Shown: one piece after another, positions 345-41,395 of the stretch
How the letters are laid out: the number at the start of each line of letters is the position of its first letter
Numbering within the stretch: the stretch's first letter is position 1
Source: an uncultured Muribaculaceae bacterium
GTDB taxonomy: Bacteria > Bacillota_I > Bacilli_A > RF39 > UBA660
Direction of reading: 5' to 3'
Assembly: GCA_964384115.1 (NCBI GenBank)
Contig: CAYLJU010000003.1
Location: 7,375-71,374, forward strand
DNA length: 64,000 nt
Made by a program: the position numbers and the translations under genes
Notes under the pieces: generated by a model
Databases searched by the model: none
Told to the model about the DNA's origin: nothing
What the model saw: only the letters and a program-made list of their open reading frames with translations

Positions 345-857
345 TTAAACTAATATCATAATAGTAAAACTTATCAAATATGGTAATGCTTTATTTAATC
401 CATTAAAATCAAAACCATCTTTTGTACAAAACGATAATAAAGTTGGTATTACAATTGATAATATAGCTAATAAATTACCTCCAACTATTTTAGTTTTAAC
501 TAAATTTCTATAATGATTAATTATACATAACAATGACTTTTCATTATAAATATTATTTTTATTTGAATATTCTTTAAAAAGTTTATTTTCAAAATTCCTA
601 ATAATCAATGTTAGAGGTTCTTCATCATTTCTTTTCTTTCCTATGCTCAAATGTAATTTTGTTTTCAAAACTCTTTCGCTTACTTTTTTCATGATAAGAA
701 GCATTGCTATAAAAATTAAAATCATAAATATAATTTTGTCAAAAAAATTGAAAATTAATGATATAAATATAGACATAACATATATCCAAAATGTCCTTTT
801 CTTAATTATATTATATGGACTTTCCTTTTTATAAATCTCTTCTATATCTTTATACAT
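345..857 (-). CDS. hypothetical integral membrane protein (several predicted TM helices), last gene of the left-end accessory cassette
   Basis: 170-aa ORF with hydrophobic stretches typical of TM helices. It is on the same strand as, and directly downstream of, the DUF2075 gene. Confidence 0.4.
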   Translation of the reverse strand: MYKDIEEIYKKESPYNIIKKRTFWIYVMSIFISLIFNFFDKIIFMILIFIAMLLIMKKVSERVLKTKLHLSIGKKRNDEEPLTLIIRNFENKLFKEYSNKNNIYNEKSLLCIINHYRNLVKTKIVGGNLLAILSIVIPTLLSFCTKDGFDFNGLNKALPYLISFTIMILV

Positions 858-884
858 ATTGTTTTCTCCTAAATTTAATAGATT

Positions 885-2759: not shown

Positions 2760-2760
2760 T

Positions 2761-3111
2761 TTACTTCAAACTCTCCTTTATTTTTTGACAATCTACCGAA
2801 CTGCTAGTGTCAAAATGATTTTTACACATGCTACAATGGCATCGATCATTATTATAAATTTGTAATTGAATATATTTTCCTTCATTACCATAACAATTGT
2901 CGCAATACAATATTTTTGGGTATTCATCTTTTAAAGTTATTAAAGGTATGCTTCTATACCTTTCAATATTATTATTTTTTCTGAGTTGTTCTTTTAATGC
3001 ATTATTCTCAACTTGTAATTTATATATCTTGTCCTGCAAATTTATAACTTCTTGCTGAGTACTAATAACTTTTTGAACCATTTCTATATCATTAGATTTT
3101 TTGAGCAACAT
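2761..3111 (-). CDS. small coiled-coil protein with C-terminal Cys/His zinc-ribbon-like motif
   Basis: The N-terminal half has heptad-like Leu/Gln/Glu periodicity. The C-terminus is CDNCYGNEG...RCHCSMCKNHF (C-x2-C ... C-x-C-x2-C-x2-H). Its stop TAA is 1 nt from the ATG of the DUF2075 gene, suggesting translational coupling. Confidence 0.5.
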   Translation of the reverse strand: MLLKKSNDIEMVQKVISTQQEVINLQDKIYKLQVENNALKEQLRKNNNIERYRSIPLITLKDEYPKILYCDNCYGNEGKYIQLQIYNNDRCHCSMCKNHFDTSSSVDCQKIKESLK

Positions 3112-3154
3112 TTACAACATCCCTCAATAACTTTATTGCATTCACACTTTACTC

Positions 3155-3469
3155 CTATAATTTATTATATTTAGTACTTTTTCCTTTAGCTTTCTCTATA
3201 GGGTACTTCTTAGCAGATATTTCCATTTTATCAAGTATTATTTGCTTTGGGTCAACACCTATTTGATGACATAATAATATACAATAATTCATCACATCAG
3301 CTATTTCATATTTAAGTTCATCTTTATCATAATTATTGTTCCATTGAAAACATTCCAATAATTCTCCAGATTCAATAGCAATAGACTTGGCAAGATTTTC
3401 TGGTGTATTAAATTGTAACCAATCTCTGTCTTCTGCAAATTTAACTATTTTTGTTTCTAATTCTTTCAT
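3155..3469 (-). CDS. MazG-like nucleoside triphosphate pyrophosphohydrolase (small all-alpha NTP-PPase)
   Basis: 104 aa with the EExxE...E..D metal-binding pattern (ESGELLECFQW ... KYEIADVMNYCILL) typical of the MazG/dCTPase NTP-PPase fold. Confidence 0.6.
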   Translation of the reverse strand: MKELETKIVKFAEDRDWLQFNTPENLAKSIAIESGELLECFQWNNNYDKDELKYEIADVMNYCILLCHQIGVDPKQIILDKMEISAKKYPIEKAKGKSTKYNKL

Positions 3470-3482
3470 ACTTTTCCTCCTT

Positions 3483-3534
3483 ATGACACTATGACGTTAA
3501 GTTAGGATATACCCTATACCTATTTCTAGTGTCA
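3483..3534 (-). promoter_or_regulatory. 9-bp inverted repeat (ATGACACTA ... TAGTGTCAT) in the regulator-MazG intergenic spacer
   Basis: The two arms are perfect reverse complements, separated by ~35 nt. They lie in the spacer between the HTH gene stop and the MazG start. Confidence 0.35.
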
Positions 3535-3546
3535 TTCTGTCATTTA

Positions 3547-4092
3547 TTAATCAACTATATCACTTACTGATACATTGTAACATTCAGCTAATTTCTTAAC
3601 TACTTCATTACTTAGTTTTCTACTTCCTTTTTCATATTTATTGTAAGTAGATAAATCAATACTTAAGTATTTTGCTAATTCTTTTTGAGATTTATTGTTT
3701 TCTAATCTCAAATTCTTAATTCTAAGTCTAGCTCTTACTTGTATCTTTTCTTCTATTTCATCTAATCCTTTGTTAGGATTTTGTAAATCTATAGTTATAT
3801 ACTTTTCTGCATTATTAGCTACTTTCAAGGCATAGTTAGATAATTCTAATGATTCTTTATCTGATAACTCAGGCATATTTTCAAAAAAGTAATTTGTTGA
3901 TACTTTATAAAATTTAGCCAAGTCTTGTAATACACTAATAGGTACCATTCTATCACCTAATTCATAGTGTTTATATGTAGAAGTTTTTACTCCTACTACT
4001 GAACATATTTCTCTCTGTGTTAGGTTAAATTGCTTTCTTAACTTACTCATATTTGTTCCTATAGTAACATCCAATGATTTCCTTTTTTTCAT
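3547..4092 (-). CDS. transcriptional regulator with two tandem XRE-type helix-turn-helix domains
   Basis: Two HTH_3-like segments: LTQREICSVVGVKTSTYKHYELG and KSQKELAKYLSIDLSTYNKYEKGSRKLS. It is the first gene of the cassette on the minus strand. Confidence 0.7.
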   Translation of the reverse strand: MKKRKSLDVTIGTNMSKLRKQFNLTQREICSVVGVKTSTYKHYELGDRMVPISVLQDLAKFYKVSTNYFFENMPELSDKESLELSNYALKVANNAEKYITIDLQNPNKGLDEIEEKIQVRARLRIKNLRLENNKSQKELAKYLSIDLSTYNKYEKGSRKLSNEVVKKLAECYNVSVSDIVD

Positions 4093-4278
4093 AGAATTAC
4101 CTCTTATTTTTCCTTATAAATTTATTATAACACAAGATTTCCAATTTGGAACATTAAATATAAAATTTGTCAAAAAAACAAATCTAAATTTGTTAAAATT
4201 TTCACAAAAAATTCGCTACTCATAGAAAAGTAAAAGACCATGAAGCTAAGTTTAAAGTAAAAATTAAAAATCAAACTG

Positions 4279-4312
4279 AATTTACGGATTTAACTTTTAA
4301 AAATCAGCGCTT
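4279..4312. repeat. right copy of imperfect direct repeat flanking the cassette
   Basis: See the left copy at 105-160. The shared cores are AATTTACGG[G/A]TTT and AAAAATCAG. Confidence 0.45.
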
Positions 4313-4441
4313 TTAATTTGTAAAAATTATACATTAGTTTATCCTTAATGGTAATTAACTATAAAATATATTATATACTATTCTTTTATAAAAGTCAGCA
4401 CTAATAATATTATATCTTGTTTCGAAAACAAAGTCAGCACT
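4297..4441. promoter_or_regulatory. three copies of an AAARTCAGCRCT motif upstream of the HTH regulator gene
   Basis: aaaatcagcgct (~4300), aaagtcagcact (~4391) and aaagtcagcact (~4430). Confidence 0.35.
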
Positions 4442-4560
4442 TTTTTTATTTTTAAATGAATTATGTGAGTATTTAGATGATTTTGTTAAACAAATTATTT
4501 ATAAAAAACAAATATGATGTAACAAGAGATACTCGTTAAAAATAGATATATCAACTATAT

Positions 4561-5298
4561 CTATTTTTTTATTTCATTTAAAAATTTAATGAATATATTT
4601 TCATTATCTTGAAGTAATTTCTTTGAGGCTTTTAATGTTACCCATATATTTTGATTAAATAATACATTTATTTTGATACATGCATCTTGCCTATTTTGCA
4701 AGCCTTCTTTTAAATTTATTCCATTATCAAGTAGTACTGCATAATCATTTAAATCAGTTATTGTTCTAATATCTTCTGTATCATTAAACACTTTGAAATC
4801 TTTTGAATAATTATTATTTGATTTTTTTCGAGTATATAATAATTCATTTAATTTATTTTCTATTTCTGGTGTAATCATATTTGCGAATCTAAAAAGATTT
4901 CTATCATATGCCACATAATCTAAAGTGATTTCTTTGGGCAACCTATTTTGACATACTTCAAAGCAATGCAATAATTTATTTTTTAATTCAGATATTAATA
5001 CATCAAATTCTTGATTATTCTTTTTATAATCTATATCTTTATGAGCATTATTTTTATCTCTTTCATAATATATTTTATTGACTATTTTATCATCTGATTT
5101 TATTTTTTTTAATTCTGTTTTATTGAAACTATAATCAAATATTATGCATAAATTTATATAATATAGTCTTAATTTAGAATCTATTATAGATTTTAAATCT
5201 AAATTGCTTAATGGTTCAAAATTATTTTCTATATACATTAAACTATCAATACACTTTTTTGAATCTATTAGATATCTTGCTAATTCCCATTCATTCAT
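4561..5298 (-). CDS. hypothetical protein (no recognisable domain)
   Basis: 245-aa ORF on the same strand as its neighbours. Lys/Asn-rich and non-membrane. Confidence 0.4.
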   Translation of the reverse strand: MNEWELARYLIDSKKCIDSLMYIENNFEPLSNLDLKSIIDSKLRLYYINLCIIFDYSFNKTELKKIKSDDKIVNKIYYERDKNNAHKDIDYKKNNQEFDVLISELKNKLLHCFEVCQNRLPKEITLDYVAYDRNLFRFANMITPEIENKLNELLYTRKKSNNNYSKDFKVFNDTEDIRTITDLNDYAVLLDNGINLKEGLQNRQDACIKINVLFNQNIWVTLKASKKLLQDNENIFIKFLNEIKK

Positions 5299-5374
5299 AT
5301 TTTCACCTCAAATAATATAATCGACTAAATCATATAATAATCAATATCTAATTTCTATTTTCACAATTCAAATT

Positions 5375-5728
5375 TTAAAGTATTTTTTTATTTAATATGC
5401 AATTTGGATTTTTATCAGCATATATTTTCAGAATGTATATTGTAAACAATAACATAGTACTAATTATAATAATTATCCAGTTTTCAATAATAAATGTCAC
5501 CAAAGTAATTACTATGCAACATATAGTCCATACAAATATAAACACAAAAATTCTTATTATCCAGTGACTTATTGAACCGATTTCACCTCTAAAACCCAAT
5601 TTGCCAACAACGCTAAAAGCTATTTTATATGCAATATAACCTATAATAGTCATTGCTACATAATTATAAATAGGATTTTCAAATAAAGATAATGGTGATG
5701 TTATCATTTCAAACATAAATTTTTTCAT
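5375..5728 (-). CDS. small hypothetical membrane protein (3 predicted TM segments)
   Basis: 117 aa with strongly hydrophobic segments. Confidence 0.35.
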   Translation of the reverse strand: MKKFMFEMITSPLSLFENPIYNYVAMTIIGYIAYKIAFSVVGKLGFRGEIGSISHWIIRIFVFIFVWTICCIVITLVTFIIENWIIIIISTMLLFTIYILKIYADKNPNCILNKKIL

Positions 5729-5797
5729 TTATAATCCCCCTACTTCTTAATCATTCTATAAGCTAAATTTATAGTTAAGTCCTCTTTATCTAATCAT

Positions 5798-6466
5798 TTA
5801 CTCATCTATTAATTTTATCAAATTATATCCAATAGACGTAATTATAATTTTATCTATTCCAGCATCAGCTAAAACAGGAAGATTCCCAACTGATATTGCA
5901 TTACCCGAAGACTTTAAGCTATCACAAACTTTTAATCTAAACAGATTTAAAACCATAAGTTCATATTCTTCATCATTAATGTGTAATACGTTTTGAATAG
6001 TATTTCTGTCATAATATATATTTTTATTTGTACGTGTTTCTTCTAAATTAGGATCAACACTTATTTGTTTCAATAATCTAATTTCATTAATATTTAAATT
6101 TTTTAAAATTTCAATATACATATATTTAGGATCACAATTTTTTTCAATGTCTTGCCAATTAATTAGCATATTACACCATTGTTCTTGAATTTGTTCATTA
6201 TCTTCTTGTATAGCATTTTCTAATACTTCTAAAATAAATTTAGGAGGTAATGGCGTCTCTTTTCCTTCTAATTTTCTTCTTGCTCTTTTTTTATTATATT
6301 TATCTAGAAACTTTAAAGTATTGTTCCATCTAAAATAAGATAATTGATCAACTATAATATCACCAATAGAAGCAACAACCCTATTTTTAAAATTTTTAAG
6401 CTTCAACGAACCGGTACCAACTTCAGTATCTATTGAAATTTCAAATTCTTTATCTTTTTCTTCCAT
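5798..6466 (-). CDS. hypothetical protein, possibly Abi-alpha-like (weak resemblance, from memory)
   Basis: 222 aa with an acidic/W-containing central segment (PPKFILEVLENAIQEDNEQIQEQWCNMLINW). The resemblance to abortive-infection alpha proteins is weak and unverified. Confidence 0.3.
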   Translation of the reverse strand: MEEKDKEFEISIDTEVGTGSLKLKNFKNRVVASIGDIIVDQLSYFRWNNTLKFLDKYNKKRARRKLEGKETPLPPKFILEVLENAIQEDNEQIQEQWCNMLINWQDIEKNCDPKYMYIEILKNLNINEIRLLKQISVDPNLEETRTNKNIYYDRNTIQNVLHINDEEYELMVLNLFRLKVCDSLKSSGNAISVGNLPVLADAGIDKIIITSIGYNLIKLIDE

Positions 6467-11900: not shown

Positions 11901-12371
11901 TGATAAATGGGCAACTGCTGCTAATAGATTAGCGTCTTGAACTGATGATGATGCTAATATGGCAAATCCAGTTTGTCTTGTTGCATATATATCTTGATGG
12001 TCTCCCATTATGCTTAAGGCATGGGTAGCAAGGCTTCTTGCTGCAACATGAAATACTGCTGGTAGCATTTCACCTGCTATTTTATACATATTGGGTATCA
12101 TTAGTAATAATCCTTGACTTGATGTAAATGTTGTTGTTAAAAGTCCTGATGTTAGAGAGCCATGGACAAATCCGGCTGCTCCTGCTTCCGATTGCATTTC
12201 TACTACTTTAACGCGATCATTAAATATATTTAATTTTCCTTTGTTACTTTCATTATCAATGTATTCTGCCATTGGTGATGAAGGTGTTATTGGGTAAATT
12301 CCGGCAAGTTCAGTGAAAAGATAAGCTGTTCTACTGCATGCTTCATTTCCGTCAACTGTTATTTGTTTCAT
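8985..12371 (-). CDS. nifJ: pyruvate:ferredoxin (flavodoxin) oxidoreductase, homodimeric single-chain type
   Basis: 1128 aa. N-terminus MKQITVDGNEA...YPITPSS. Two 4Fe-4S ferredoxin motifs (CxxCxxCxxxCP). C-terminal TPP-binding GGDGW motif. Strong AGGAGG RBS. Confidence 0.9.
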   Translation of the reverse strand: MKQITVDGNEACSRTAYLFTELAGIYPITPSSPMAEYIDNESNKGKLNIFNDRVKVVEMQSEAGAAGFVHGSLTSGLLTTTFTSSQGLLLMIPNMYKIAGEMLPAVFHVAARSLATHALSIMGDHQDIYATRQTGFAILASSSVQDANLLAAVAHLSAIESSIPFLHFFDGFRTSHEIDKINIIDDKEYAKLIDKNALNKFRNKALNPNKPVTKGTAQNDDIYFQVTESRNIFYESIPDIVEKYMNKINELAHTNYKPFNYYGSKDATKVLVAMGSVNETIKETIDCLNKKDYKVGLVEVHLYRPFSTNHLLKILPKTVKKIAVLDRTKEPGSIGEPLYLDITAALKDKNIEIYGGRYGLSSKNTNPACIKAIYDFLDKPFNNFTVGIVDDITKRSIKVDDNFKISTSNEMLIYGYGSDGMVSAAKSIIKLVGENTNNYVQGYFQYDSKKSGGVTISHLRFNKEKIRSTYYVENPNIIVCTKESYLDRFNILDKIKENGIFILNTEKSKEEIIKTLNDNIKYTIKNKNLKFYIINAYSLASKVGIKGKISTIMESVIIKLSNVMEYENAINHMKNEITKKFAKKGEEVINANKRAIAESLEILEKVELEDEDFIIEQEENINSIEEAILDRKGENLPTSAFLKYADGTAKSGFTDKNAISNIVPKWNKEYCLECNQCSFVCPHGVIRPYLLSEEEYNAAPNYIKERCKKPLIKALKDYYFIMGIAIDNCTGCTLCMKTCPNRGKALSAQKIEKAKENKEAEVFEYLNKKIKNKNLFDIFSVKGSQFEKPKLAFEGACAGCGEPAYIRILTQLFGEELIIANATGCSSIYGASSPCTPYTVPWANSLFEDNAEFALGMAVSNSQMKKRIHKIMEENKNNPLCKKYLENENDYNITKEVYENLDYSKLPELKKIKEYIKKRSIWAIGGDGWAYDIGFGGIDHALSTNENINILVLDTQVYSNTGGQASKATPIGTLAAFAGFGKKNYKKDLARIALSYPHVYVATVCLGANPNQLIKVLKEANEHNGPSIVIAYAPCISHGITGGMENSIEIEKQAVSCGYYPLFHYKPGEEFILDSKEVNFDDYQNFLEKQTRFNAIKKINPSEADKLLEYNILEAKKRFYYYESLSRK

Positions 12372-14145
12372 TATTTCCTCCTACATCTACAAACCAAGAT
12401 TTTGTTATATTGCATGAAGCACTGTTTGGGGCGGGATTTGGCATTGCAAATTTTATGATTACAGGAATTTTAAATCCGCTTCCAAATGCCATGCACATTC
12501 CTGGTGGTAGTAATTTTATTTTTTTTACTGTTTCTTCAGTTATATTTGGTATAATTTCTTTTATGAATTCAACATCTTTAGGGTGTTGTACTTTAAATAT
12601 TAAAAAATTGCTGCACTGGGATATAGCTGTTTCTGATAGTTCTGATGGTCTTTGTGTTATTAGTCCTAATAAAACACCATATTTTCTTCCTTCTTTTGTT
12701 ATTCTATCAAATATATTATATCCTAGTAAGTTTACGTCGTTATCGTTTTGGACATATCTATGTGCTTCTTCTAAGACTATGTGAAATGGAAAAGTTGCTT
12801 TTTGTTCCATATTCTTAGCATAATCAAATAATAATTTTGAATATATTTTAGTTATTGTTTTTGCTAATCTATCATCTATGTAGTTTATATTGAAATTTAT
12901 TATTTGGGCTTTTCTTCCGTTTGGTGCTGTCATAAGATTACGAATATATTTTTCTTTTGTTATGTATTCTGGATAATCAAAATATGTGTGATTTTCACTG
13001 TTTAATAATGTGTGTAATCTTACTTTTAGTATATTTAAATCATCGTATATTTTTTGACTATTTAATACTCCTTCTGATATAAGGGCGAATTCAAAAGCAT
13101 CTTTTAAATCTTTTAATGTATATTTGAATGTTCCATCTGGTAATTGTAGATTATATTCTTCTAATAAATATCCATTCATTACATTTGTTACTAATTCCAT
13201 TTCTCTTATTTTTCCTGTTGCATCTATTAATAGGCATTGTTTTAATGGTCTTGTATATCCTGGTTGTACTACTTTAGTTTCTAGATTTAATTCACTTGTG
13301 TTGTAATATGATAATACAGAAAATACTTGGTCTCTTATTTGAGCTGGTGAATTTCCACTTGATAATATGTCGAGGATTGCACGGGCTATTATGTCATTTT
13401 TATATTTTATAACACTTGATTCTTCTCTTCCAAAGATGGTTACATATTTTAAAGCTTTTTCAATTATTGTTAATTGAGATGCTTTTTCAGCGTTTAGTAA
13501 AAGTGCTATATCGTCAACCCCTAAAAACCATAGTGGTATACGCATTATTTCGCTTGGTCCTTTGGTATTTGTTGTATATGCTTTAAAACTGATATTTGGA
13601 TTTATTTTATTTATGTTTTCAAAGGCATTATGATATTCACCATAGGCATCAAATAAAAAGATTGATGCTTTGTATGGTATAGACATTTTTTTACTGAATA
13701 AATTTTGAAATATTCGTGCTACTCCGCATGATTTTCCTGATCCGGTGGATCCTATTATTGTAAAATGTTTGCTGAAAAAATCATTTATATTGACTCCTAT
13801 TTGGACATCGTCATATATTGGGCTTGTACCTAATAATAAATCTTTGTTTTCTTTGTATGTTGGCATACCTATTATGTATGGTACTTTTTCTTTTGATACT
13901 ATTTTTACAATAGAATCTAATGATGGTTTTTTGGAAATTCCGCTTACAAATGTATTTTCTTTTATTTGACCTATTAGATTTACTTGTAGTGTGTTTTCAT
14001 TTATATTGATGACTTCACCTACTAAATTATTTTCATTATTTTCAAATACAACAAAAGAATTTGTGATATTGCCTATGTTTGTTATTTGAGGATTTAATTT
14101 TACATATACTATATTTTCTTCTATTGATATTATTTTTCCTAACAT
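12352..14145 (-). CDS. HerA/FtsK-superfamily ATPase (HAS-barrel + P-loop, DUF87-like), paralog 1
   Basis: 597 aa with an N-terminal HAS-barrel-like segment, Walker A GSTGSGKS and Walker B HIVLEEAHRY, plus an ITQRPSELSETAISQCSNFLIFK block. Its last 20 nt overlap the PFOR start. Confidence 0.75.
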   Translation of the reverse strand: MLGKIISIEENIVYVKLNPQITNIGNITNSFVVFENNENNLVGEVININENTLQVNLIGQIKENTFVSGISKKPSLDSIVKIVSKEKVPYIIGMPTYKENKDLLLGTSPIYDDVQIGVNINDFFSKHFTIIGSTGSGKSCGVARIFQNLFSKKMSIPYKASIFLFDAYGEYHNAFENINKINPNISFKAYTTNTKGPSEIMRIPLWFLGVDDIALLLNAEKASQLTIIEKALKYVTIFGREESSVIKYKNDIIARAILDILSSGNSPAQIRDQVFSVLSYYNTSELNLETKVVQPGYTRPLKQCLLIDATGKIREMELVTNVMNGYLLEEYNLQLPDGTFKYTLKDLKDAFEFALISEGVLNSQKIYDDLNILKVRLHTLLNSENHTYFDYPEYITKEKYIRNLMTAPNGRKAQIINFNINYIDDRLAKTITKIYSKLLFDYAKNMEQKATFPFHIVLEEAHRYVQNDNDVNLLGYNIFDRITKEGRKYGVLLGLITQRPSELSETAISQCSNFLIFKVQHPKDVEFIKEIIPNITEETVKKIKLLPPGMCMAFGSGFKIPVIIKFAMPNPAPNSASCNITKSWFVDVGGNNETNNS

Positions 14146-17559: not shown

Positions 17560-17590
17560 TTAAAAAAATCTCACTTAAGGTGAGACTTTT
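17560..17590 (-). terminator. intrinsic terminator downstream of the D-Ala-D-Ala carboxypeptidase gene (tctcac-ttaag-gtgaga)
   Basis: 6-bp stem flanked by an A-run and a T-run, so it could act in either direction. Confidence 0.55.
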
Positions 17591-18732
17591 TATATTTGAC
17601 CTAATAATAATTCTTTGATATTTCTTACATATAATCTAAATATATTTGCTTTTTTTACTGTTTCTTTAACTGTTAATGGAATTGTTCTTGTTTCTATATC
17701 ATTTTCAACTATTGTTATTGTTCCTACTTGCTCACCTTTTTCAATTGGTGCTTCTAAATCAGATATTTTTACTCTATATGTTACATTTTTTTTGTTTTGC
17801 ATTTTTTTATTTAATACTTTTATATCTTCTTTTGGAACTATATCAACTTTTCTTGATAATGATTTTGATATATTTTTTGATGCAATAACACTTTCTTTTG
17901 TTAATAATGTTTCTAATTCATATTGGGAGAATCCATAATCTATTAATCCAAGTGTTTCTTTATTCCTACTTTCAATGCTTGGTTCACCCATAGTTATAGC
18001 AATTAGTCGCATACCATTTTTCATTCCAGTTAGAGTAATACAATATCCAGCACCTTTGGTATATCCGGTTTTTAACCCATCTATATAATCATAAAATCTT
18101 ACTAGTTTATTTGTGTTTACTAACCAAACTTTTTGATTTGTATTTTCTCTTAGATACATTTCATATATTTTTGTGTATTCTGTTACTTTTTCATGTTTTA
18201 ATAATTCTTTGGCAATTATTCCCATGTCATATGCTGACGAATAATGATTATCCTCATCTATTCCGTGAGAATTTTGAAATAGTGTGTCTTTTAATCCTAA
18301 TTCATTTGCTCTTTTATTCATGAGTTCAACAAAGTATTCTTGTGTGCCACCTATTTTTTCAGCTAAAGCTACTGCTGCATCATTTCCACTTGCTATAGCA
18401 ACACCTTTAATTAAATTATCGACTGTCATTTTTTCGCCTGTTTCAAGCAATATTTGACTACCACCCATACCTGATGCGTTTACTGATACAATTACTTCAT
18501 CTGATAATTTTAGTTCACCTCTTTCAATTGCTTCAAATGTAAGTAAAAGTGTCATCATTTTTGTCATTGATGCTGGTTTTAATCTTTCATTTGCATTTTT
18601 TTCATATAGGATTTCTCCTGTTGAGGCTTCAATTAGAATTGCACTTTTACTTGATGGTGCGAATACATCATCAGCATTTACTTTTGATATACATGCTATA
18701 ATTGTTAAAAATAAAATTATTGTTTTTTTCAT
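17590..18732 (-). CDS. dacA: D-alanyl-D-alanine carboxypeptidase (serine-type, PBP5/DacA-like) with signal peptide
   Basis: SMTKMMT (SxxK), SGN and KTG motifs. N-terminal signal peptide. 380 aa. Confidence 0.8.
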   Translation of the reverse strand: MKKTIILFLTIIACISKVNADDVFAPSSKSAILIEASTGEILYEKNANERLKPASMTKMMTLLLTFEAIERGELKLSDEVIVSVNASGMGGSQILLETGEKMTVDNLIKGVAIASGNDAAVALAEKIGGTQEYFVELMNKRANELGLKDTLFQNSHGIDEDNHYSSAYDMGIIAKELLKHEKVTEYTKIYEMYLRENTNQKVWLVNTNKLVRFYDYIDGLKTGYTKGAGYCITLTGMKNGMRLIAITMGEPSIESRNKETLGLIDYGFSQYELETLLTKESVIASKNISKSLSRKVDIVPKEDIKVLNKKMQNKKNVTYRVKISDLEAPIEKGEQVGTITIVENDIETRTIPLTVKETVKKANIFRLYVRNIKELLLGQI

Positions 18733-18792: not shown

Positions 18793-19833
18793 ATGAAGAA
18801 GAATATTTTGTTTATTTTAATTTTAACTATCATTTTAGGTTTTGTTTGCATAATATATTTTGGTGATAGCGAAGTTCAAATGAAAAATAGTTTAAAAAAG
18901 ATTGGTTATAGCGATGAAGAATCTGAAAAAATACTTAATGTTTTTAGTGATGATATTAATTGTATATATGATAATTATATAAGTGATATTACTGGTTTAC
19001 TTAATCATAAAGACTTTAATTCAGAAAATAAATGTCTTTATATTAAATATATAAAGGATAATAACGTTAACGCAAGTGTTGCAATTGAAATGGTTAATGC
19101 TAGTCTTGAAAATTATGATTATAGTGATTATTTATATAATATTAAAAATGATTCTTATTTTTTATTAAGAAATACTGATAGATATATTGATTATTATAAA
19201 AAAAATATGCAATTAAGTACAAGAGAAATTGTATCTGCTGTTAATGCCAATATTGATTATGATTATTATACAAACATTAAGGTTTCTGAAAACCAAGATA
19301 GTTTACTTGTTATTGTTAATAAATATCATACTTTGGATTCATCATATGTACCACAAAATTTGGTTAATGTTTCTTATCCATATGGATATGGAAAAGTTGA
19401 TAAAACTTTGTATGAAAATTTTAAAAAAATGGCTGATGCTGCTAGAAGTGAAGGCTTGAATATTTATATTTCTTCTGGTTATAGAAGTTATGATTATCAA
19501 AAAGCTTTATATAATGGATATACCAAAATAGATCCTGTTAGTGTTGTTGATACTTATTCTGCAAGGCCTGGTCATTCTGAACATCAAACTGGTTTAGCAA
19601 TTGACTTGAATACTATTTCATCTTCTTTTGCTTATACTAATGAATTTAAGTGGCTTATGAACAATGCTTATAAATATGGTTTTATTTTAAGATATCCAAA
19701 AGATGATGTTAATTTGACTGGCTATATGTATGAACCTTGGCATTATAGATATGTTGGTAATGATGTTGCGGAATATATTTATAAAAACAATATTACTTTT
19801 GATGAGTATTATGAATATTTTTTAGCTAATTAG
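18793..19833 (+). CDS. VanY/M15-family zinc D,D-carboxypeptidase, membrane anchored
   Basis: N-terminal TM segment. SGYRSY, ARPGHSEHQTGLAIDL and EPWHYRY (H-x6-D ... H) zinc-binding motifs of peptidase M15. Confidence 0.75.
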   Translation: MKKNILFILILTIILGFVCIIYFGDSEVQMKNSLKKIGYSDEESEKILNVFSDDINCIYDNYISDITGLLNHKDFNSENKCLYIKYIKDNNVNASVAIEMVNASLENYDYSDYLYNIKNDSYFLLRNTDRYIDYYKKNMQLSTREIVSAVNANIDYDYYTNIKVSENQDSLLVIVNKYHTLDSSYVPQNLVNVSYPYGYGKVDKTLYENFKKMADAARSEGLNIYISSGYRSYDYQKALYNGYTKIDPVSVVDTYSARPGHSEHQTGLAIDLNTISSSFAYTNEFKWLMNNAYKYGFILRYPKDDVNLTGYMYEPWHYRYVGNDVAEYIYKNNITFDEYYEYFLAN

Positions 19834-20325
19834 TGATGCTATGTATATTGTTTGTTTATCATTTCCTTTACATGTTATTAAAACTAATATGTTGTTGTAA
19901 TTATATTTTTTTATTACTGCTTTTCCATTTTTTAAAATATCATATATGTTTACTATTTGGTAAACATATTTTTTTTGATTGTAATTTATAATAATTTTAT
20001 CTTTTAATTCTAATTTATATAGCTTATTAAAATAAGATACATTTGAATTTCCATTATGACTTGCAAGTATTATACAGCTATTTTCATTTTCTGGTAATGA
20101 TAGTGGTTTTAATAATTCAATTCCTATATTAACATTGTTTAATTCACTATCTAAATTATATACTTCTTTTTTTAAGTTTATTTTAGGTATTTCTATTTCA
20201 AATAAGTAATTTTCTTTATATTTTGTTTCTTTTGTATTATTAATAGATGTATTATTAACAAACTTATAACTTAACATATTTAATAATGTTATTATTAATA
20301 TAATTGATTTAATTATTTTTTTCAT
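19822..20325 (-). CDS. sortase (class B/pilus-type-like) with TLxTC-like active site LVLITC
   Basis: Signal/TM N-terminus, ILASHNG (His), VLITCKG (Cys). Lies directly downstream of the adhesin gene. Confidence 0.6.
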   Translation of the reverse strand: MKKIIKSIILIITLLNMLSYKFVNNTSINNTKETKYKENYLFEIEIPKINLKKEVYNLDSELNNVNIGIELLKPLSLPENENSCIILASHNGNSNVSYFNKLYKLELKDKIIINYNQKKYVYQIVNIYDILKNGKAVIKKYNYNNILVLITCKGNDKQTIYIASLIS

Positions 20326-22630
20326 ATTTTTTTAGTCCTATTATTAAAAATATAAAAAATGGTAAAATATTAAAGTTTTTATTTTTCATTGTATTTGGTA
20401 CTTCTATAATGAAATCATTTTCTATATATATTTCTTTTTTTTCTTCATTTTCTATAAAAAATTCAATTTTTTCGTTGTTATTTTTATAACCTTTACTTGC
20501 TACTTTTTCAATTAAAGTATATTGTCCTGTTGTTAAATTATCTATGATAATTTGGCCATTTTGATCTGTTACTTTAGTGTATATTAATTTATTATTTTTA
20601 TATATTTCAAATATTGTTTCTGATATACCTTTTTTTGTAATTGAATCTATTTTATTTATAATTAATTGATTTTTTTTTAAATAATTATTTAATGTTATTT
20701 CTTTTGTTACTACATTAGTTATTTCGTCAATATATAATAATTCTATAATATATATTTTTTCATCTAATATATAATTTTCATTTGTTTTTATTTCTTTTAT
20801 ATAATACTTACCTAATTCTAATTCATCAAATATAACTTTTCCTTCTTCATTTGTTATAAGTGTTTTTATTAAGTCATTTTTTTTATAAAGTATTTTATTA
20901 TTTATGATAATGTCAGAATATGCATAAAGTCCAATTGATACATTTTCTAATTTTTCTATTTTATATGTTAGTTCATCTTCTATTTGCTCTTTTTCCCCTA
21001 ATTTTAATACTTCTATTTTTCCTTTTACTCTTTTATTTTTAAATTCTACAATATATGTATCATTTTCTACTTTTTCATTTCCTATGAATATTTCTATTGT
21101 TTGATTATTCCATAGATACCCTTCTATTTTTTCTTTGACTTCTTCAATAAGTAAATTTCCTTTTAATTTTTCTTTGGTAATAACATATCCTTCTTTATTT
21201 GTTTGATATGTACATTCTTCATTTTCACATATGTATTTATTGGTATTTAAATCTTTAATTTTAAATTTTATACCTTCTTTTGTAATTACTTCTTTTGTTT
21301 CATCATCTATTTTTATAATTTTTATGTAAGCATTTATTTCTTCATCTATTAATTCATAATTTATTTCGTCTGTTTTAGTAATATTTATTTCAATATCAGG
21401 TACTTTTAAATATCCTTTTTTAGTATTTACTTGCTTGATTATATATTTACCATATGGTAAATAAATTGTAGCTTGTCCATTAATATCTGTTGTTATTGTT
21501 TCTATTTTTATATTATTTTGATAAATGTCAAACTTGGTATTTTCTTCAGCAAATAGTTCTTTTTTGGAATTACCATATAATTTATGGATTGTAATTTTAC
21601 TTTCAATTATGTTTTCAATTAAATTTATTGTACAATTTATATTATTTTTATTTATTTCAAAATAATGTTTATTTTGATCTAATTCATATCCTACTGGATT
21701 ATGGATTTCTTTTAAATAATATTTTCCTTTACTTATTTCACTTTTAGCTTTACCTTCTCCGTTTGTTTGTAATGTTAATACTAATTCATCATCTATATTA
21801 TATACACCATATATAGCTCCATCTAAACTATAATTTGTTTCTTTATTTGGTGTTTTAATTAATTCTATTTGTCCTATTAATGGTTTAACTTTTATTTCTA
21901 TTTTATCTTGTTCATCAAGCGTTAATAGTGCCATCATTTGCGATTTTTGATTGTTTCCTTCATAAAATACGGATATTTTATTATCGTATTTTTTTCTTTT
22001 TAATATAATTTTACTTTCATCTTTGTTTAATATTTTAACTATTAATTTATTATCTTTGATTTCTACTTTATTTTTGCCATCTGTTTCTATTTCATATTCA
22101 TTTAAAATGTTATTTAAATCCTCTAATATTATTTCTTCGTTTATATAATCTTCGATATAATTTATTTTAAAATTTGGTTTTATTTTATGGTTTTCTATTA
22201 ATTTTAAAATGTTATTTTTCTCATTTTCGATATTTATATATTCGCCATATCCATATTGTTTTGTATAAAATTCATTTATTTGACCTCCTATTAGTGACCA
22301 TATTAGTGATTGGGTTGCCATACGATATTTTTCTGCTTCATGTCCTGGATAATTATATCCGTAATAACCTATTAATTTTATTTTTTCTATTATTTCTTCA
22401 TTATATGGTAATTTATCCATTTCTTTATATTCGGTTGTTGTAATTTCCATACCTGGTTCAATGCAATAGGCTACTATTCCATCCATACTGTAATGTTTAT
22501 ATTTTTCTGAAAAATATGGTTTTCCTCCTCCTCTTCTTACAAGATATACGTCTGTTTCTTCTACTAATAAACTAGCTTTAACATTATATATTGTTAATAT
22601 CATGATTATTATTATAATTTTTTTTATCAT
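20309..22630 (-). CDS. surface adhesin: N-terminal thioester domain (Cys in AYCIEP, Gln in TQSLIW) followed by several CnaB/SpaA-type isopeptide domains and a C-terminal sorting-signal-like tail
   Basis: Signal peptide present. TQxxIW and YC[IV]E motifs match thioester domains. Three copies of the TDxNGQ..I..L..G.Y...E.....GY CnaB-type motif. The C-terminus is VPNTM, then a hydrophobic stretch, then KKYEKNN. Confidence 0.6.
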   Translation of the reverse strand: MIKKIIIIIMILTIYNVKASLLVEETDVYLVRRGGGKPYFSEKYKHYSMDGIVAYCIEPGMEITTTEYKEMDKLPYNEEIIEKIKLIGYYGYNYPGHEAEKYRMATQSLIWSLIGGQINEFYTKQYGYGEYINIENEKNNILKLIENHKIKPNFKINYIEDYINEEIILEDLNNILNEYEIETDGKNKVEIKDNKLIVKILNKDESKIILKRKKYDNKISVFYEGNNQKSQMMALLTLDEQDKIEIKVKPLIGQIELIKTPNKETNYSLDGAIYGVYNIDDELVLTLQTNGEGKAKSEISKGKYYLKEIHNPVGYELDQNKHYFEINKNNINCTINLIENIIESKITIHKLYGNSKKELFAEENTKFDIYQNNIKIETITTDINGQATIYLPYGKYIIKQVNTKKGYLKVPDIEINITKTDEINYELIDEEINAYIKIIKIDDETKEVITKEGIKFKIKDLNTNKYICENEECTYQTNKEGYVITKEKLKGNLLIEEVKEKIEGYLWNNQTIEIFIGNEKVENDTYIVEFKNKRVKGKIEVLKLGEKEQIEDELTYKIEKLENVSIGLYAYSDIIINNKILYKKNDLIKTLITNEEGKVIFDELELGKYYIKEIKTNENYILDEKIYIIELLYIDEITNVVTKEITLNNYLKKNQLIINKIDSITKKGISETIFEIYKNNKLIYTKVTDQNGQIIIDNLTTGQYTLIEKVASKGYKNNNEKIEFFIENEEKKEIYIENDFIIEVPNTMKNKNFNILPFFIFLIIGLKKYEKNN

Positions 22631-22697
22631 TTTTCCCTCCCAATTATACTATACGATTTTTTTATTCAAAATACTTTTTTGTATAAAAAAAAGAGTC

Positions 22698-23378: not shown

Positions 23379-23424
23379 ATCATACCTCCTAAAATAAAAG
23401 GACTTTTAAAGTCCTTTGAACATA

Positions 23425-24069: not shown

Positions 24070-24636
24070 TTAGGCATTTTGTTTTTTTTGTCTATCATAA
24101 TTTTTAATTACACCGGCAAAAGATAGTTCTAGAATTTTTAACATTTTGTTTATTACTTCTATTGGTTCACTTTTCATTCCACTTTTTAACCAGTAGTATA
24201 TACAATTTGATATAGCACCTGCAAAAAATTTAATGATTAGTTTTTCATCATTAGGATCTAGAATTATTTCTTGATATTTTATATTTTTATAATTTCTTAT
24301 TAATTCTTCTATTGTTATATATATGTATTTTTCAAATGTTTTACATATTTTTGAATTATAAAGATTAGATATTGCTTTCTTATTTTCGGTTATATATTTT
24401 GTTGATTTAGCAAAAGTACTTTTTTCTGTATTTTTACAAATATTTATAATTTCATTAGATTTATTTTTTAATAATTTATCTACTAAATCAAATATATCTT
24501 CATAATGATAATAGAATGTATTTCTATTTATTTTGCATTTTTCAGTTATTTCTTTTATTGTTATTTTATCAAATGATTTTTCGTCTAATATTTCTATAAA
24601 TGTTTTCATTATTTCTTTTTTTGTTAATTCTACCAT
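24070..24636 (-). CDS. TetR-family transcriptional regulator
   Basis: N-terminal TetR HTH (FDKITIKEITEKCKINRNTFYYHYEDIFDL). 188 aa. Confidence 0.75.
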   Translation of the reverse strand: MVELTKKEIMKTFIEILDEKSFDKITIKEITEKCKINRNTFYYHYEDIFDLVDKLLKNKSNEIINICKNTEKSTFAKSTKYITENKKAISNLYNSKICKTFEKYIYITIEELIRNYKNIKYQEIILDPNDEKLIIKFFAGAISNCIYYWLKSGMKSEPIEVINKMLKILELSFAGVIKNYDRQKKQNA

Positions 24637-24648
24637 ATTTCCTCTTTT

Positions 24649-25569
24649 TTACTTAAACATCTGTCTAATTGCTTTAGTATATATTTTTTTGATAATTTTT
24701 GCGCAATTAATATTTTCTTTTAGTAAATTTTTTGTCATAATACCACTATTTATTTCTAATACCATATATTCATTATCAGTTGTTTTTATTATGTCAACGC
24801 TACAAAATCCAAGTTCTAAATTTTTTACTATTTTATTAATTATTTTCATTAAATTATTTTTTTCTGTTTTATCAATTTTAAAATTTGCTTTTGCTCCTTG
24901 TGATAGATTAAATTTCCAATTATATGTATATTCTTCATCTTTTTTTAATATTTTATTTAATTCTATACCGTTTATATTTTTAAAATATTGATAGTTAAAT
25001 TCTTCTAGTAACTGTTTGATTGTTGATTTTCCATTACCTATTACTTTTGGTAGTTCTTTTTTATATATTAGTTCTACTTTATTATTTAATACTATTACTC
25101 GATATTCATTGATTATTTTATAGAATGGGCATATACTTAATGATTTTTCACTTTTATTGTTATCATAATATTCTTTTAATTCTTCTATACTTTTTATTCT
25201 ATTTACATTTTTTCCACATGTTCCAGTATTTTCTTTGATAACAATATCTTGATTATATTTATTAAATATTTCTATGTAATAGTTTAATGTATTATATTTT
25301 TGAGCATATGTGCTTTTATTTATTTTGCTATAGGCAATACTGTGTTCACATACAGGTACATCAGATAATTTTAATATTTCATATGTTCCATATTTATCAT
25401 CTAATATTTTGCCTAAGGCATGATTATTGATATCAAATTTATGTCCTACAATAAATTTTTTTTTACTCTTTTTTTGTAATACTATAATCCATCCTTCAGA
25501 TAATATATCTATTTTTATATTATTTTCTTTACATATATTTTTTATTATTTCATGAAATTCTGTATTCAT
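24649..25569 (-). CDS. ATP-grasp fold protein, YheC/YheD-like (spore-coat-associated ATP-grasp family)
   Basis: C-terminal SVDII...VLEINSGIM block (ATP-grasp E-x-N motif). 306 aa. Adjacent to a CotD-like gene. Confidence 0.55.
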   Translation of the reverse strand: MNTEFHEIIKNICKENNIKIDILSEGWIIVLQKKSKKKFIVGHKFDINNHALGKILDDKYGTYEILKLSDVPVCEHSIAYSKINKSTYAQKYNTLNYYIEIFNKYNQDIVIKENTGTCGKNVNRIKSIEELKEYYDNNKSEKSLSICPFYKIINEYRVIVLNNKVELIYKKELPKVIGNGKSTIKQLLEEFNYQYFKNINGIELNKILKKDEEYTYNWKFNLSQGAKANFKIDKTEKNNLMKIINKIVKNLELGFCSVDIIKTTDNEYMVLEINSGIMTKNLLKENINCAKIIKKIYTKAIRQMFK

Positions 25570-25643
25570 TTTTTCACCTGTTAATAACTATATCATATTT
25601 TTGTTTTTTAGACAAATTAAAAGGCTCTCTTTGGAGCCTTTAT

Positions 25644-25910
25644 TTAAAATCCACTACATTTATTGCACTCATTATTGATTACAACATTTTCTTCTGAGCA
25701 TGTATATTCTGGTCTATATGTATGATTATATATGTGTTTATTGACTACGTGTGTATGTATTGGGCATACATGTGGTACTTCATGATAGAATTCCTTTTCA
25801 ACACATTTTGTAATTGTAGGTTCAATTACTTCATTTTGGCGACAAGGATCCATGTTTTGATTGCATCCATTAGCGCAATTGGGGCATCTTCTTCCAAAAC
25901 CAAAAAACAT
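25644..25910 (-). CDS. Cys/His-rich small protein, CotD-like inner spore coat protein candidate
   Basis: 88 aa with 10 Cys and an H-x-V-P-H-V-x-P-x-H-x-H-V-V-N-x-H-x-Y-x-H pattern resembling CotD-type coat proteins. Strong AGGAGG RBS. Confidence 0.45.
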   Translation of the reverse strand: MFFGFGRRCPNCANGCNQNMDPCRQNEVIEPTITKCVEKEFYHEVPHVCPIHTHVVNKHIYNHTYRPEYTCSEENVVINNECNKCSGF

Positions 25911-27689: not shown

Positions 27690-29447
27690 TTATGCTTTAT
27701 TTGCTTTCCATGTTTCATAAACATCACAGCTAGAACTGTATGGTGCGGGATCTGGCATTTGCATTTTTACTATCATTGGTATTTTAAATGCTTTTCCAAA
27801 TGCTACGCATGTTCCTGGTTGTAAGGACTTTTGTTTTTCAATTATTTCATTATTTATATTTGGTAACATCATTTTAATATATTCTAAATCCCTTGGATGG
27901 TTCATTTTAAATATCATAAAATTAGAACATTGTGATATTACTGTTTCTGATAATTCTACTGGTCTTTGGGATATTAAATTTAACATTACACCGTATTTTC
28001 TTCCTTCTTTGGCTACGCGTTCAAATATATTATAGCCTATTAAATATGTGTCTTCATCATTTTTTACATATCTATGGGCTTCTTCTAAAAATATATGGAA
28101 TGGTATTGATGCTCTTGTTTTTAAACTTTTTGCAAAATTAAATAACATTTTAGTGAATATTTTTGTAACAGCTTTAGCAAAACTATCATCTACTTCTTCG
28201 AGATTAAAATTGATTATTTGAACTTTTTTATTATTACTTGATATTAGAGATGCTATATATTTTTCTCTTGTCATATATGTTGGTAATTTAAAGTAATTAG
28301 AATTTTCTCCTATTACTAAAGCATGTAATTTTACTTTAAGTGTTACAGCATCACCATATGTTTGTTCATTTCTTAAAAATCCTTCAGATATTAATGTGAA
28401 TGATAATGCTTGTTCAAAATCTTCTAATGTATAATATCCTATGCTACTAGCTTCATATTTTTCTAAATCATCATTAATAAATCCTTGGATATATTGAGTT
28501 ATTAGAACACTTTCACAGAAGTTACCGGCTGTATCAATTATAAAGCATTCTCTAAATCTTCTTTGATATCCTATTCCTTGAATGATTGTTTCTAAATTGA
28601 ATTCTGGTGTTGAACATGTTTGAATTATACTAAATATATCATTTCTTTTAGATGCTGATGTTTGATTAGTATATAGTATTGTCATTATTGCTTTTGCAAT
28701 TAAATGGTTTTTATATTTTTGGGCTTCAACTCCATTTTCAGCAAATATGGCAACTAATTTAAGAGCACGCTCTAATATAGTTATTTGTCCATGATTTGTT
28801 GCGCCCAATAGTATAGCAATATCATCAACGTCTAAAAGCCATAATGGTATTTGTAATATTTCTCCTTCGGTATCATGTAGATTAGTTGTATAGTATTTGA
28901 AATTTAAATTGACATTGTATTTATTTATATCTTTAAAGGCATTATGATATTCTCCATAGGCATCAAATATAAATATGTTTGATCTAAATGGTAGATAGTT
29001 TTTATTATTAAATACATTTTGCAAAAGACGGGCAACACCGCATGATTTTCCGGAACCGGTATTTCCAAATATGGCCATGTGATTACTGAATAAATCGTTA
29101 TATTTTATTCTGACTGGACAATCGTCATATAATGGTGAGTATCCTAGTAACATTGTATCTTGTCCTTCTTCACCCACTATCATACGCATTTCACTTGGTT
29201 CAATTGCTCTTATTTTGCTTGTTAAGCTAGGTTTTCTTATAACTCCACCTATAAATTTTCCATTTACAATTTCTCCTAAAAATGATATTTTTATTTCCTT
29301 ATCACTTATATCATCTACTTCACCTAATATTTGTTTTTTTTCATCTTCAAATATAACATGTAAATTCATGATATCATTTATAACTACACCTTGTATTAAT
29401 TCTACTCGTGCGATGTTATCGCCTATATATAATATTTTTCCAAACAT
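27690..29447 (-). CDS. HerA/FtsK-superfamily ATPase (HAS-barrel + P-loop), paralog 2 (~50% identical to 12352-14145)
   Basis: Walker A GNTGSGKS and Walker B HIFLEEAHRY, plus ISQRPVELSETVISQCSNFMIFK. Collinear with paralog 1 along its whole length. Confidence 0.75.
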   Translation of the reverse strand: MFGKILYIGDNIARVELIQGVVINDIMNLHVIFEDEKKQILGEVDDISDKEIKISFLGEIVNGKFIGGVIRKPSLTSKIRAIEPSEMRMIVGEEGQDTMLLGYSPLYDDCPVRIKYNDLFSNHMAIFGNTGSGKSCGVARLLQNVFNNKNYLPFRSNIFIFDAYGEYHNAFKDINKYNVNLNFKYYTTNLHDTEGEILQIPLWLLDVDDIAILLGATNHGQITILERALKLVAIFAENGVEAQKYKNHLIAKAIMTILYTNQTSASKRNDIFSIIQTCSTPEFNLETIIQGIGYQRRFRECFIIDTAGNFCESVLITQYIQGFINDDLEKYEASSIGYYTLEDFEQALSFTLISEGFLRNEQTYGDAVTLKVKLHALVIGENSNYFKLPTYMTREKYIASLISSNNKKVQIINFNLEEVDDSFAKAVTKIFTKMLFNFAKSLKTRASIPFHIFLEEAHRYVKNDEDTYLIGYNIFERVAKEGRKYGVMLNLISQRPVELSETVISQCSNFMIFKMNHPRDLEYIKMMLPNINNEIIEKQKSLQPGTCVAFGKAFKIPMIVKMQMPDPAPYSSSCDVYETWKANKA

Positions 29448-40975: not shown

Positions 40976-41395
40976 GAGTTTTCTAGAAATTGTTGTACCA
41001 TTTATATTAGGCTTTATCTAATATAAATTCTAAATGAATATTATCAGTATTCACCACAACTTCTTATCATTAGAGTTTTTCTTTCTCATAAAACAATTGC
41101 TTTTGCTTAGCGCTGATAAGAATTTATTAATACCAATTAATAAATTTTTCTTGCTTTAAAGATCTTTTTTTTAGCAAACCGACTTGTATTATACTAAATA
41201 TAATACCAACCATCTTCAGACAGTCATTCGTGATATAAAATCACTAGTTATTTTATAAATTATTTAAATATTAAATAATTTGATAAAATATTAGGTGCTT
41301 ATATGATCTATTCTTACTAAGCAATTATATTGTAGCATATATTTTTTTCGTTGGCAATACATTTTTTGAAAATTTTGTCAAAAAATGTAATTTAA

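Follow-up and report, generated by a model that had tools for sequence, protein, structure and literature searches.

Locus organization

We analysed a 64-kb window of contig CAYLJU010000003.1 (positions 7,375 to 71,374; assembly GCA_964384115.1), from an uncultured bacterium of the GTDB lineage Bacilli_A; RF39; UBA660. On its minus strand lie two overlapping genes, one encoding a large predicted thioester adhesin and the other a small sortase. Both genes and their 17-nt overlap are found exactly where the initial annotation had put them, and all four peptides it quoted (AYCIEP, MATQSLIW, VPNTM and LVLITC) are present. That annotation read the pair as a thioester adhesin with repeated isopeptide-type domains, processed by a dedicated sortase through a non-canonical signal. 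Our analysis partly supports this: the interpretation is correct in outline, but it named the wrong glutamine as thioester partner and missed an unusual sortase active site, in which glutamine stands at the position of the catalytic arginine. The elements of the two-gene unit are as follows.

20309..22630, minus strand: adhesin gene, 773 residues, TIE-type (open reading frame (ORF); Pfam TED, five SpaA and SdrD_B)
19822..20325, minus strand: sortase gene, 167 residues (ORF; Pfam Sortase)
20309..20325, minus strand: overlap of the adhesin and sortase genes, 17 nt (sequence)
22635..22641, minus strand: ribosome-binding site GGGAGGG, 4 nt before the adhesin ATG (read directly)

The sortase ATG sits within the Lys-Tyr-Glu (KYE) codons of the adhesin, with an AGGA 11 nt upstream of that ATG. 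The adhesin tail that contains these codons, KKYE(K/E), shows unusually strong conservation in close relatives, probably because it is co-encoded in another frame with the start of the sortase (MKK...), which would impose a dual-coding constraint.

A sortase with glutamine at the catalytic arginine position

The sortase is built from an N-terminal membrane anchor and a following catalytic domain, in which LVLITC forms residues 147–152. The Pfam Sortase model (PF04203) matches it with 57.5 bits (E=1.5e-15). Its AlphaFold (AF2) model (mean predicted local distance difference test (pLDDT) score 85.4) adopts the eight-stranded β-barrel fold of sortases, with one strand ending at Cys152 and the last strand beginning at Gln158, where sortases are described as placing their Cys and Arg (PMC3019223). 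A Foldseek search with this model returned 125 matches at E<=0.001, every one of the 50 listed being a sortase. Three residues are central to what follows.

20056-20058, minus strand: His90, sortase catalytic residue, assigned from conservation
19870-19872, minus strand: Cys152, in the sortase LITC motif
19852-19854, minus strand: Gln158, at the catalytic-Arg position

The assignment as a sortase that the initial annotation tied to LVLITC stands; the expectation of a normal sortase does not, since the enzyme has no catalytic Arg and carries an invariant Gln instead. The 167-residue protein contains no Arg at all, and past LITC it runs KGNDK-Q-TIYIASLIS. In an alignment of 24 relatives, His90, Gly92, Thr151, Cys152 and Gln158 are among the residues that never vary (24/24). 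When the profile of this alignment is compared with solved structures, the best match is Clostridium perfringens SrtD (CpSrtD; 4d70, E 6e-14), whose triad is His109/Cys171/Arg178 (PMC4498605), and the alignment sets Gln158 on the second Arg of TCTNRGKDRYIVKA, which is Arg178. Counting seven residues on from Cys171 in CpSrtD leads to this same Arg.

The substitution is shared by a large clade. Searching 1.84 billion representatives exhaustively with HMMER gave 601 clusters (50% identity) at E<=1e-30. His, Cys and Gln occupy these positions in 150/150 of the best representatives of the 601 clusters and, by hidden Markov model (HMM) alignment, in 80/80 metagenome-contig loci (74 distinct sequences). 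Many of these Gln-type sortases do have Arg elsewhere in the protein, so the exchange of Arg for Gln is not merely an effect of composition, and the size of the clade argues that purifying selection acts on the gene and that it is not decaying. The window enzyme is homologous to sortases in both fold and sequence and departs from the canonical His-Cys-Arg triad, which reviews and structural papers treat as universal in sortases (PMC8225981, PMC3019223).

Only the generic NCBIfam sortase model passes its cutoff; the class-specific models all score below theirs (class C, 53.9 against 160; SrtD NF058671, 47.5 against 140; class D NF033746, 43.5 against 165). Neither the sortase nor its sorting signal fits class D, yet class D is the nearest solved class by profile. 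The lid motif of class C, DP[YWF], is absent from the sortase, which has no DP dipeptide and neither a hydrophobic C terminus nor a membrane anchor there. We found no description of an Arg-less or Gln-type sortase in the open-access literature searched, which is absence of evidence and no proof of novelty. A tblastn search of 72,556 plasmids with a Gln-type sortase recovered a remote class C sortase only and gave no cultured-plasmid example. The window sortase apparently belongs to a large undescribed group with Gln at the catalytic-Arg position.

A predicted [V/I]-P-x-T sorting signal

20309..20407, minus strand: C-terminal sorting signal of the adhesin, residues 742-773 (sequence and family logo)
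20387-20401, minus strand: VPNTM, residues 744-748 (sequence)

The architecture of a sorting signal, which the initial annotation had described around VPNTM, is borne out at the adhesin C terminus: IIE-VPNTM-KNKNF is followed by the hydrophobic segment ILPFFIFLIIGL and the basic tail KKYEKNN. The adhesin stretch that covers the predicted sortase signal is IIEVPNTMKNKNF. Compared with the tripartite LPXTG signal, the hydrophobic segment and KKYEK tail are kept, but Val stands for Leu and Met for Gly; none of the NCBIfam LPXTG-anchor models matched the adhesin.

Homologues place VPNTM within a wider motif. Among 35 distinct homologue tails, position 1 is Val in 32, Ile in two and Leu in one, Pro and Thr never vary, Asn, Lys or Asp predominates at position 3, and position 7 is Asn in 28/35; the family logo is [V/I]-P-x-T-x-K-N. 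Position 5 varies freely, both in these tails (L12, G6, M4, I4, D4, S2, E1, Y1) and in 46 distinct metagenomic tails (G9, D7, L7, S6, F5, N3, E3, I2, Y2, Q1, M1). Because Pro and Thr are invariant and position 5 is variable, VPNTM reads as one instance of a family signal and not as a one-off mutation of LPXTG. On these alignments the predicted family signal is (E)-[V/I]-P-x-T, and any constraint ends at the presumed scissile Thr, the next residue being free.

In three loci from human gut metagenomes (L027, L028 and L030) a Gln-type sortase is paired with a thioester-domain (TED) protein of just ~300 residues. This short protein ends VPSTS-IPFASIKFGVLTFFKNDSRYFN, without the usual Lys-rich end, and may be a minimal substrate consisting of the TED only.

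The thioester domain of the adhesin

22571..22630, minus strand: Sec-type signal peptide, residues 1-20: MIKK, hydrophobic core, VKA/S (sequence and hydropathy)
21884..22570, minus strand: Class II TED, residues 21-249 (Pfam, conservation, AF2, Foldseek)
22463-22465, minus strand: Cys56, in Y-C-I-E, invariant in relatives
22298-22315, minus strand: helper motif T106-Q107-S-L-I-W111 (TQxxΦW)
21938-21940, minus strand: Gln231, predicted bond partner, invariant in relatives

The adhesin begins with a signal peptide, the absence of which would have counted against the initial reading; this was judged by eye and not by a predictor, and the same pattern is kept in adhesin homologues. Beyond it lies a TED, matched by Pfam PF08341 over residues 53-145 with 32 bits against a 22-bit cutoff. 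The best PDB sequence match to the adhesin is the SaTIE-TED of Staphylococcus aureus (6fx6, E=3.7e-11), and the stalk matches BaTIE (6fwv). Like the Pfam SpaA and Sortase scores, the TED and 6fx6 matches far exceed what chance would give. An AlphaFold model of the domain (residues 20-252, built with 25 family sequences) reached a pLDDT of 93.5 and a predicted template modelling score (pTM) of 0.85. Searched against PDB chains with Foldseek, this model has 6fx6 as its sole match at E<0.001 (E 6.7e-11), superposing with a template modelling (TM) score of 0.75/0.74 over 249 columns. This match assigns the predicted domain to the Class II fold of a head domain with a β-sandwich insert.

Published Class II TEDs place the bond Cys in [YFL]CΦζ, carry a TQxxΦW helper motif on the helix beside the bond and have the bond Gln in a weak ΦQζΦΦ context (Miller 2018, PMC6194298). 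The Cys proposed in AYCIEP (residues 54-59) holds up, with Y55-C56-I57-E58 matching [YFL]-C-Φ-ζ. The Gln proposed in MATQSLIW (residues 104-111) does not: it is Gln107, the Gln of the helper motif, and although the Gln and Trp of TQxxΦW flank the thioester they are dispensable for the bond (PMC6194298). Cys56, Glu58, Gln107, Trp111 and Gln231 are each invariant in 25/25 diverse relatives. In Class II domains the bond Gln lies ~170-200 residues past the Cys (SaTIE Cys296/Gln467, BaTIE Cys71/Gln266; PMC6194298); Cys56 and Gln231 are 175 residues apart, compared with 171-204 in solved Class II TEDs. Gln231 sits in K-S-Q-M-M-A (KSQMMA), where the family consensus is SQK[LM]G and SaTIE has AQKVG, and fits the weak motif only partially. 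Two other candidates were discarded: Gln107, since family conservation and the published motifs favour Gln231, and Gln228, which a pairwise phmmer alignment set against SaTIE Gln467 and which is not conserved. The predicted thioester bond is therefore Cys56-Gln231.

Taken by itself, the adhesin adds one more, unremarkable member to the TIE protein family. We retrieved 575 homologues, some already named automatically by NCBI; one carries the name 'Cys-Gln thioester bond-forming surface protein'.

The adhesin stalk

20408..21883, minus strand: stalk of five SpaA/CnaB-type domains, residues ~250-741 (Pfam SpaA, BaTIE mapping, conservation)
21431-21433, minus strand: Gln400 in D2, at the catalytic-Glu position (YIIKQVNTKKGY; invariant in 19/19 relatives)

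Where the initial annotation counted at least three CnaB/SpaA domains, Pfam finds five: the SpaA model matches five stretches (prealbumin-fold domains) with 167 bits (E=9.6e-50). We mapped their residues using BaTIE (6fwv) as a guide together with conservation among 19 relatives. Candidate isopeptide triads, formed by invariant Lys/Glu/Asn, occur in D3 (K440/E496(E497)/N532), D4 (K543/E613/N649) and D5 (K660/E708/N738), and only these three domains combine the first-strand Lys, catalytic Glu/Asp and last-strand Asn/Asp of an isopeptide domain with a predicted prealbumin-like fold. D1 has K259/E308 without a conserved Asn/Asp acceptor. D2 has K350 and a residue at 429 that is always Asp or Asn (D429 here); its Gln400 stands where the other stalk domains have the catalytic Glu, within Y-x-Φ-K-E...GY. 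D2 may have no isopeptide bond, or its bond may arise by a different route. No YPKN-type pilin motif was found in the adhesin sequence.

Pairing of adhesin and sortase across relatives

The initial proposal of a dedicated adjacent sortase gains weight from the relatives, as the adhesin-sortase gene pair is present in every related locus examined. Its overlapping arrangement recurs in three related genomes (L001 and L002; also L010 and L011) and in the distant L004, L006 and L008. Of 59 metagenomic loci with an ORF upstream of the sortase, 56/59 have one that ends in [V/I]PxT, a hydrophobic segment and a basic tail, and TED motifs are found in most of the full-length metagenomic partner proteins. 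The window itself encodes a single sortase and a single sorting-signal protein. Within this 64-kb scope, genomic association gives good support to a sortase dedicated to the adhesin.

Many related pairs have conjugation genes nearby. Of 37 related loci of at least 9 kb, at least 18 have VirB4 or VirB6/TrbL-like genes within 5 kb of the pair. Among these long loci, and in L006 (9196-13523) and L008 (10124-14020), the pair commonly stands directly upstream of type IV secretion system (T4SS) genes (VirB6/TrbL-like DUF8208, PrgI-like and VirB4/TraC-like), and ParB, SSB and DNA methyltransferase genes accompany the T4SS-linked pairs. Such neighbours suggest that these pairs are carried by conjugative elements in uncultured Firmicutes of the gut. 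The window proteins are smaller than those of the conjugative-type modules (sortase, 167 against ~206 residues; adhesin, 773 against at least 900 residues), and the window copy looks like a chromosomal, shortened form of a module usually carried on conjugative elements.

Proposed mechanism and alternative explanations

We consider it probable that the two genes form a surface-display module, in which a thioester adhesin is anchored to the wall by its own His-Cys-Gln sortase. The adhesin would be exported via the Sec pathway and would form its Cys56-Gln231 thioester autocatalytically, with Lys-Asn isopeptides in at least three stalk domains. Its hydrophobic C-terminal segment and basic tail would retain the precursor in the membrane, where the co-translated, membrane-anchored sortase would read [V/I]-P-x-T, needing no Gly past the scissile bond, and cut after Thr747 (VPNT/M) to give an acyl-enzyme on Cys152, with His90 as acid/base. 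The Gln158 amide could supply the substrate backbone/oxyanion hydrogen bond or bonds that normally come from Arg. The adhesin would then be passed to an amine of a peptidoglycan precursor and so anchored in the wall, and its thioester would react with an amine on the target surface, forming a covalent link.

An analogy for Gln158 comes from papain-family cysteine proteases. Papain has a Cys-His pair, and its Gln19 amide contributes to the oxyanion hole, which is the role we propose for Gln158. The papain fold is unrelated to that of sortases, and the analogy implies no homology.

Several points weigh against an active, dedicated Gln-type sortase. The register of the profile alignment past the TC motif has a moderate posterior probability only. 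The conserved Arg of S. aureus SrtA is reported to be needed for efficient catalysis (Marraffini 2004, as covered in PMC3019223), so that an enzyme lacking it could be slow or could follow another mechanism. Another sortase, encoded outside the window, could process the adhesin. Taken further, the loss of Arg could mean that the homologue is inactive as a transpeptidase, the adhesin staying membrane-held by its C-terminal segment, or that it acts as a chaperone or protease only. The absence of any Arg from the protein fits this, as do reviews that assign all sortases the triad and call its Arg important for catalysis (PMC3019223), and there is a precedent in TIE-pLS20, a Class II TED adhesin that functions without a sortase (PMC8092201). 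However, hundreds of diverged sequences all keep His, Cys and the substituted Gln, the partner proteins retain an invariant Pro and Thr at the signal-like position, and the adhesin and sortase genes are translationally coupled. Such a kept enzyme-substrate pattern fits an active pair and would be lost with a dead enzyme, and we regard inactivity as highly unlikely. A working enzyme might instead be a class C-like pilus polymerase that joins adhesin subunits to one another, or the adhesin to an unseen pilin, in a fibre: class C sortases are the top Foldseek matches, class C gives the highest partial NCBIfam score, SpaA domains are typical of pilins, and the pilus-tip adhesin Cpa, which bears a TED, has the similar signal VPPTG (PMC3019223). 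Against this, the locus has one substrate gene and the window no major or basal pilin gene, the adhesin has no YPKN-type motif, the sortase has neither the DP[YWF] lid nor a C-terminal membrane segment, its class C score falls far short of the cutoff (53.9 against 160), and its closest solved relative by profile is the class D CpSrtD. With no lid, pilin motif or pilin genes, we reject polymerization into a pilus, leaving it only a very slim chance.

A further alternative concerns the purpose of the module and leaves the anchoring mechanism unchanged: the adhesin could serve adhesion between bacteria, in mating-pair formation during conjugation, and not attachment to host or mucus. The VirB4 or VirB6/TrbL-like genes beside at least 18/37 related pairs speak for this, and efficient pLS20 conjugation needs a Class II TED adhesin (PMC8092201), while wall-anchored adhesins often support Gram-positive conjugation (PMC12857230). 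The window copy, however, has core genes around it (RecG, PFOR, Ffh, FtsY, RNase J, SpoIVA and RelA), no T4SS probe matched within the 64 kb, and its position beside VanY and PBP5 is conserved in related species whose adhesins are 53-57% identical. We think a mating role unlikely.

The point of interest is the Arg-less, presumably Gly-independent sortase clade and not the adhesin. Whether the Gln-type enzymes amount to an undescribed class of their own, defined by His-Cys-Gln and a Gly-free [V/I]-P-x-T signal, co-evolved as dedicated partners of Class II thioester adhesins, carried for the most part by conjugative elements in gut Firmicutes, and in this spore-forming lineage fixed in the core chromosome beside peptidoglycan carboxypeptidases, we judge to be evenly poised. 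If true, a Gln-for-Arg clade with kept substrates would be a natural experiment on the role of Arg, separating charge from hydrogen bonding to the oxyanion or backbone. Such a clade would further mean that current class definitions and annotation models overlook a sortase type common in the gut microbiome, as the failure of all class-specific NCBIfam models here suggests. Should any residue be accepted after the scissile Thr, sortase-mediated protein ligation would be widened past LPXTG. The module would tie covalent adhesion through thioesters to the conjugative elements that uncultured gut bacteria carry, and the window has a chromosomal copy.

Comparison with known systems

The closest known systems to the adhesin are the Class II TIE proteins BaTIE (6fwv), SaTIE (6fx6) and EfmTIE86 (PMC6194298). 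The TED of SaTIE superposes on the window model (TM 0.75) at ~18% identity in the structural alignment, and its Cys-Gln spacing is 171, against 175 in the window protein. The differences lie towards the other end of the chain: one stalk domain of the window adhesin has an invariant Gln at the catalytic-Glu position, the signal is VPNTM where BaTIE has LPATG, and the adhesin has its own adjacent Arg-less sortase in place of housekeeping SrtA. TIE-pLS20, from the Bacillus subtilis plasmid pLS20, also has CnaB-type domains after a Class II TED and is of similar length (778 against 773 residues). It has no sorting signal and needs no sortase (PMC8092201), whereas the window adhesin has a signal and a coupled sortase. 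Many relatives of the window pair are likewise found in conjugation loci, but the window pair itself is not.

Cpa and Spy0129 of Streptococcus pyogenes offer a precedent: the signal of this TED-bearing adhesin, VPPTG, is of the V-P-x-T-G type and is served by a dedicated nearby sortase instead of SrtA (PMC3019223). Cpa differs in having Class I TEDs, in being a pilus tip protein on a major pilin and in keeping Gly at position 5; Spy0129 is a class B sortase with the usual Cys-His-Arg. Among class D sortases, CpSrtD (4d70, LPQTGS), B. anthracis SrtC (LPNTA) and B. subtilis YhcS (LPDTS) resemble the window enzyme in being small and lid-less, in the short loop from Cys to the next strand and in occurring in spore formers. 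Non-Gly fifth residues are known in class D substrates, as LPNTA and LPDTS illustrate. Class D tolerates Ala and Ser there, however, whereas the window family takes bulky and acidic residues; the class D signal starts with Leu and that of the window family with Val or Ile, and Arg178 of CpSrtD corresponds to Gln in the window sortase.

Chromosomal setting and expression signals

18793-19833, plus strand: VanY-type D-Ala-D-Ala carboxypeptidase gene, convergent with the sortase gene
17590-18732: PBP5-type carboxypeptidase gene, beyond the VanY gene

The window comes from the core chromosome of an endospore-forming bacterium, has ~25% G+C and carries genes for RecG, PFOR, a YqeH-like GTPase, the PBP5-type and VanY-type carboxypeptidases, Ffh, FtsY, RNase J, MiaA, QueA, DinB, SpoIVA, RelA, an LtaS-like sulfatase, FtsK and UvrC. 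The closest GTDB genomes are metagenome-assembled genomes named 'uncultured Bacilli bacterium', from Hadza human gut samples. GCA_022770325.1, whose adhesin is 57% identical, keeps the order CmpB-like / adhesin / sortase / VanY (convergent) / PBP5, and the place beside VanY and PBP5 is likewise kept in related species with adhesins just 53-57% identical. This conserved chromosomal position indicates that the window copy does not lie on an obviously mobile element. We rejected an origin of this copy on a mobile element, given the lack of T4SS probe matches in the window, the core flanking genes and the conserved synteny.

The 3' ends of the sortase and VanY-type genes overlap by 12 nt (19822-19833), leaving no space for a terminator between them. 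VanY adjoins the sortase in L001, L002, L010 and L011 and not in the wider family; a functional tie between wall-precursor trimming by VanY/PBP5 and anchoring is speculative. A promoter scan gave 43 matches against 41 expected from shuffles of this AT-rich DNA, no excess, and no promoter was assigned to the adhesin gene. A TATAAT beside the adhesin ribosome-binding site was discounted as its -10 element, being too near that site. The only terminator-like site, at 23397-23417, is upstream of the CmpB-like gene, so the CmpB-like, adhesin and sortase genes may be co-transcribed.

Other features of the window

A variable islet adjoins the adhesin locus at 24070-25910, between a DUF4186 gene and the DUF308/CmpB-like genes, and differs from its equivalent in L001 (1186-6488). 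In the window it holds a TetR-family gene, a 306-residue ORF with no Pfam match and an 88-residue Cys/His-rich CotD-like ORF (21.5 bits, just below the 22-bit cutoff). The L001 islet carries Fic, RhuM, D12-class methyltransferase, NERD and ASCH genes, and the neighbouring 304-residue gene in L001 has a faint ATP-grasp_3 match.

Elsewhere, 345-6466 is likely a defence cluster, with genes for a helicase of Schlafen group 3 type (885-2759, 344 bits), an Xre/MqsA-like regulator with a double helix-turn-helix (3547-4092), a product without a Pfam match (4561-5298) and the abortive-infection protein Abi_alpha (5798-6466). A pair of HerA-like ATPase paralogues of 597 and 585 residues, each with DUF87 as its central domain, is encoded on the minus strand at 12352-14145 and 27690-29447, ~13 kb apart in this core chromosome. 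Just downstream of spoIVA (41396-42865), the Rfam PGK RNA motif RF03040 occurs at 41034-41127 on the minus strand, scoring 74 bits against a gathering score of 50.8.

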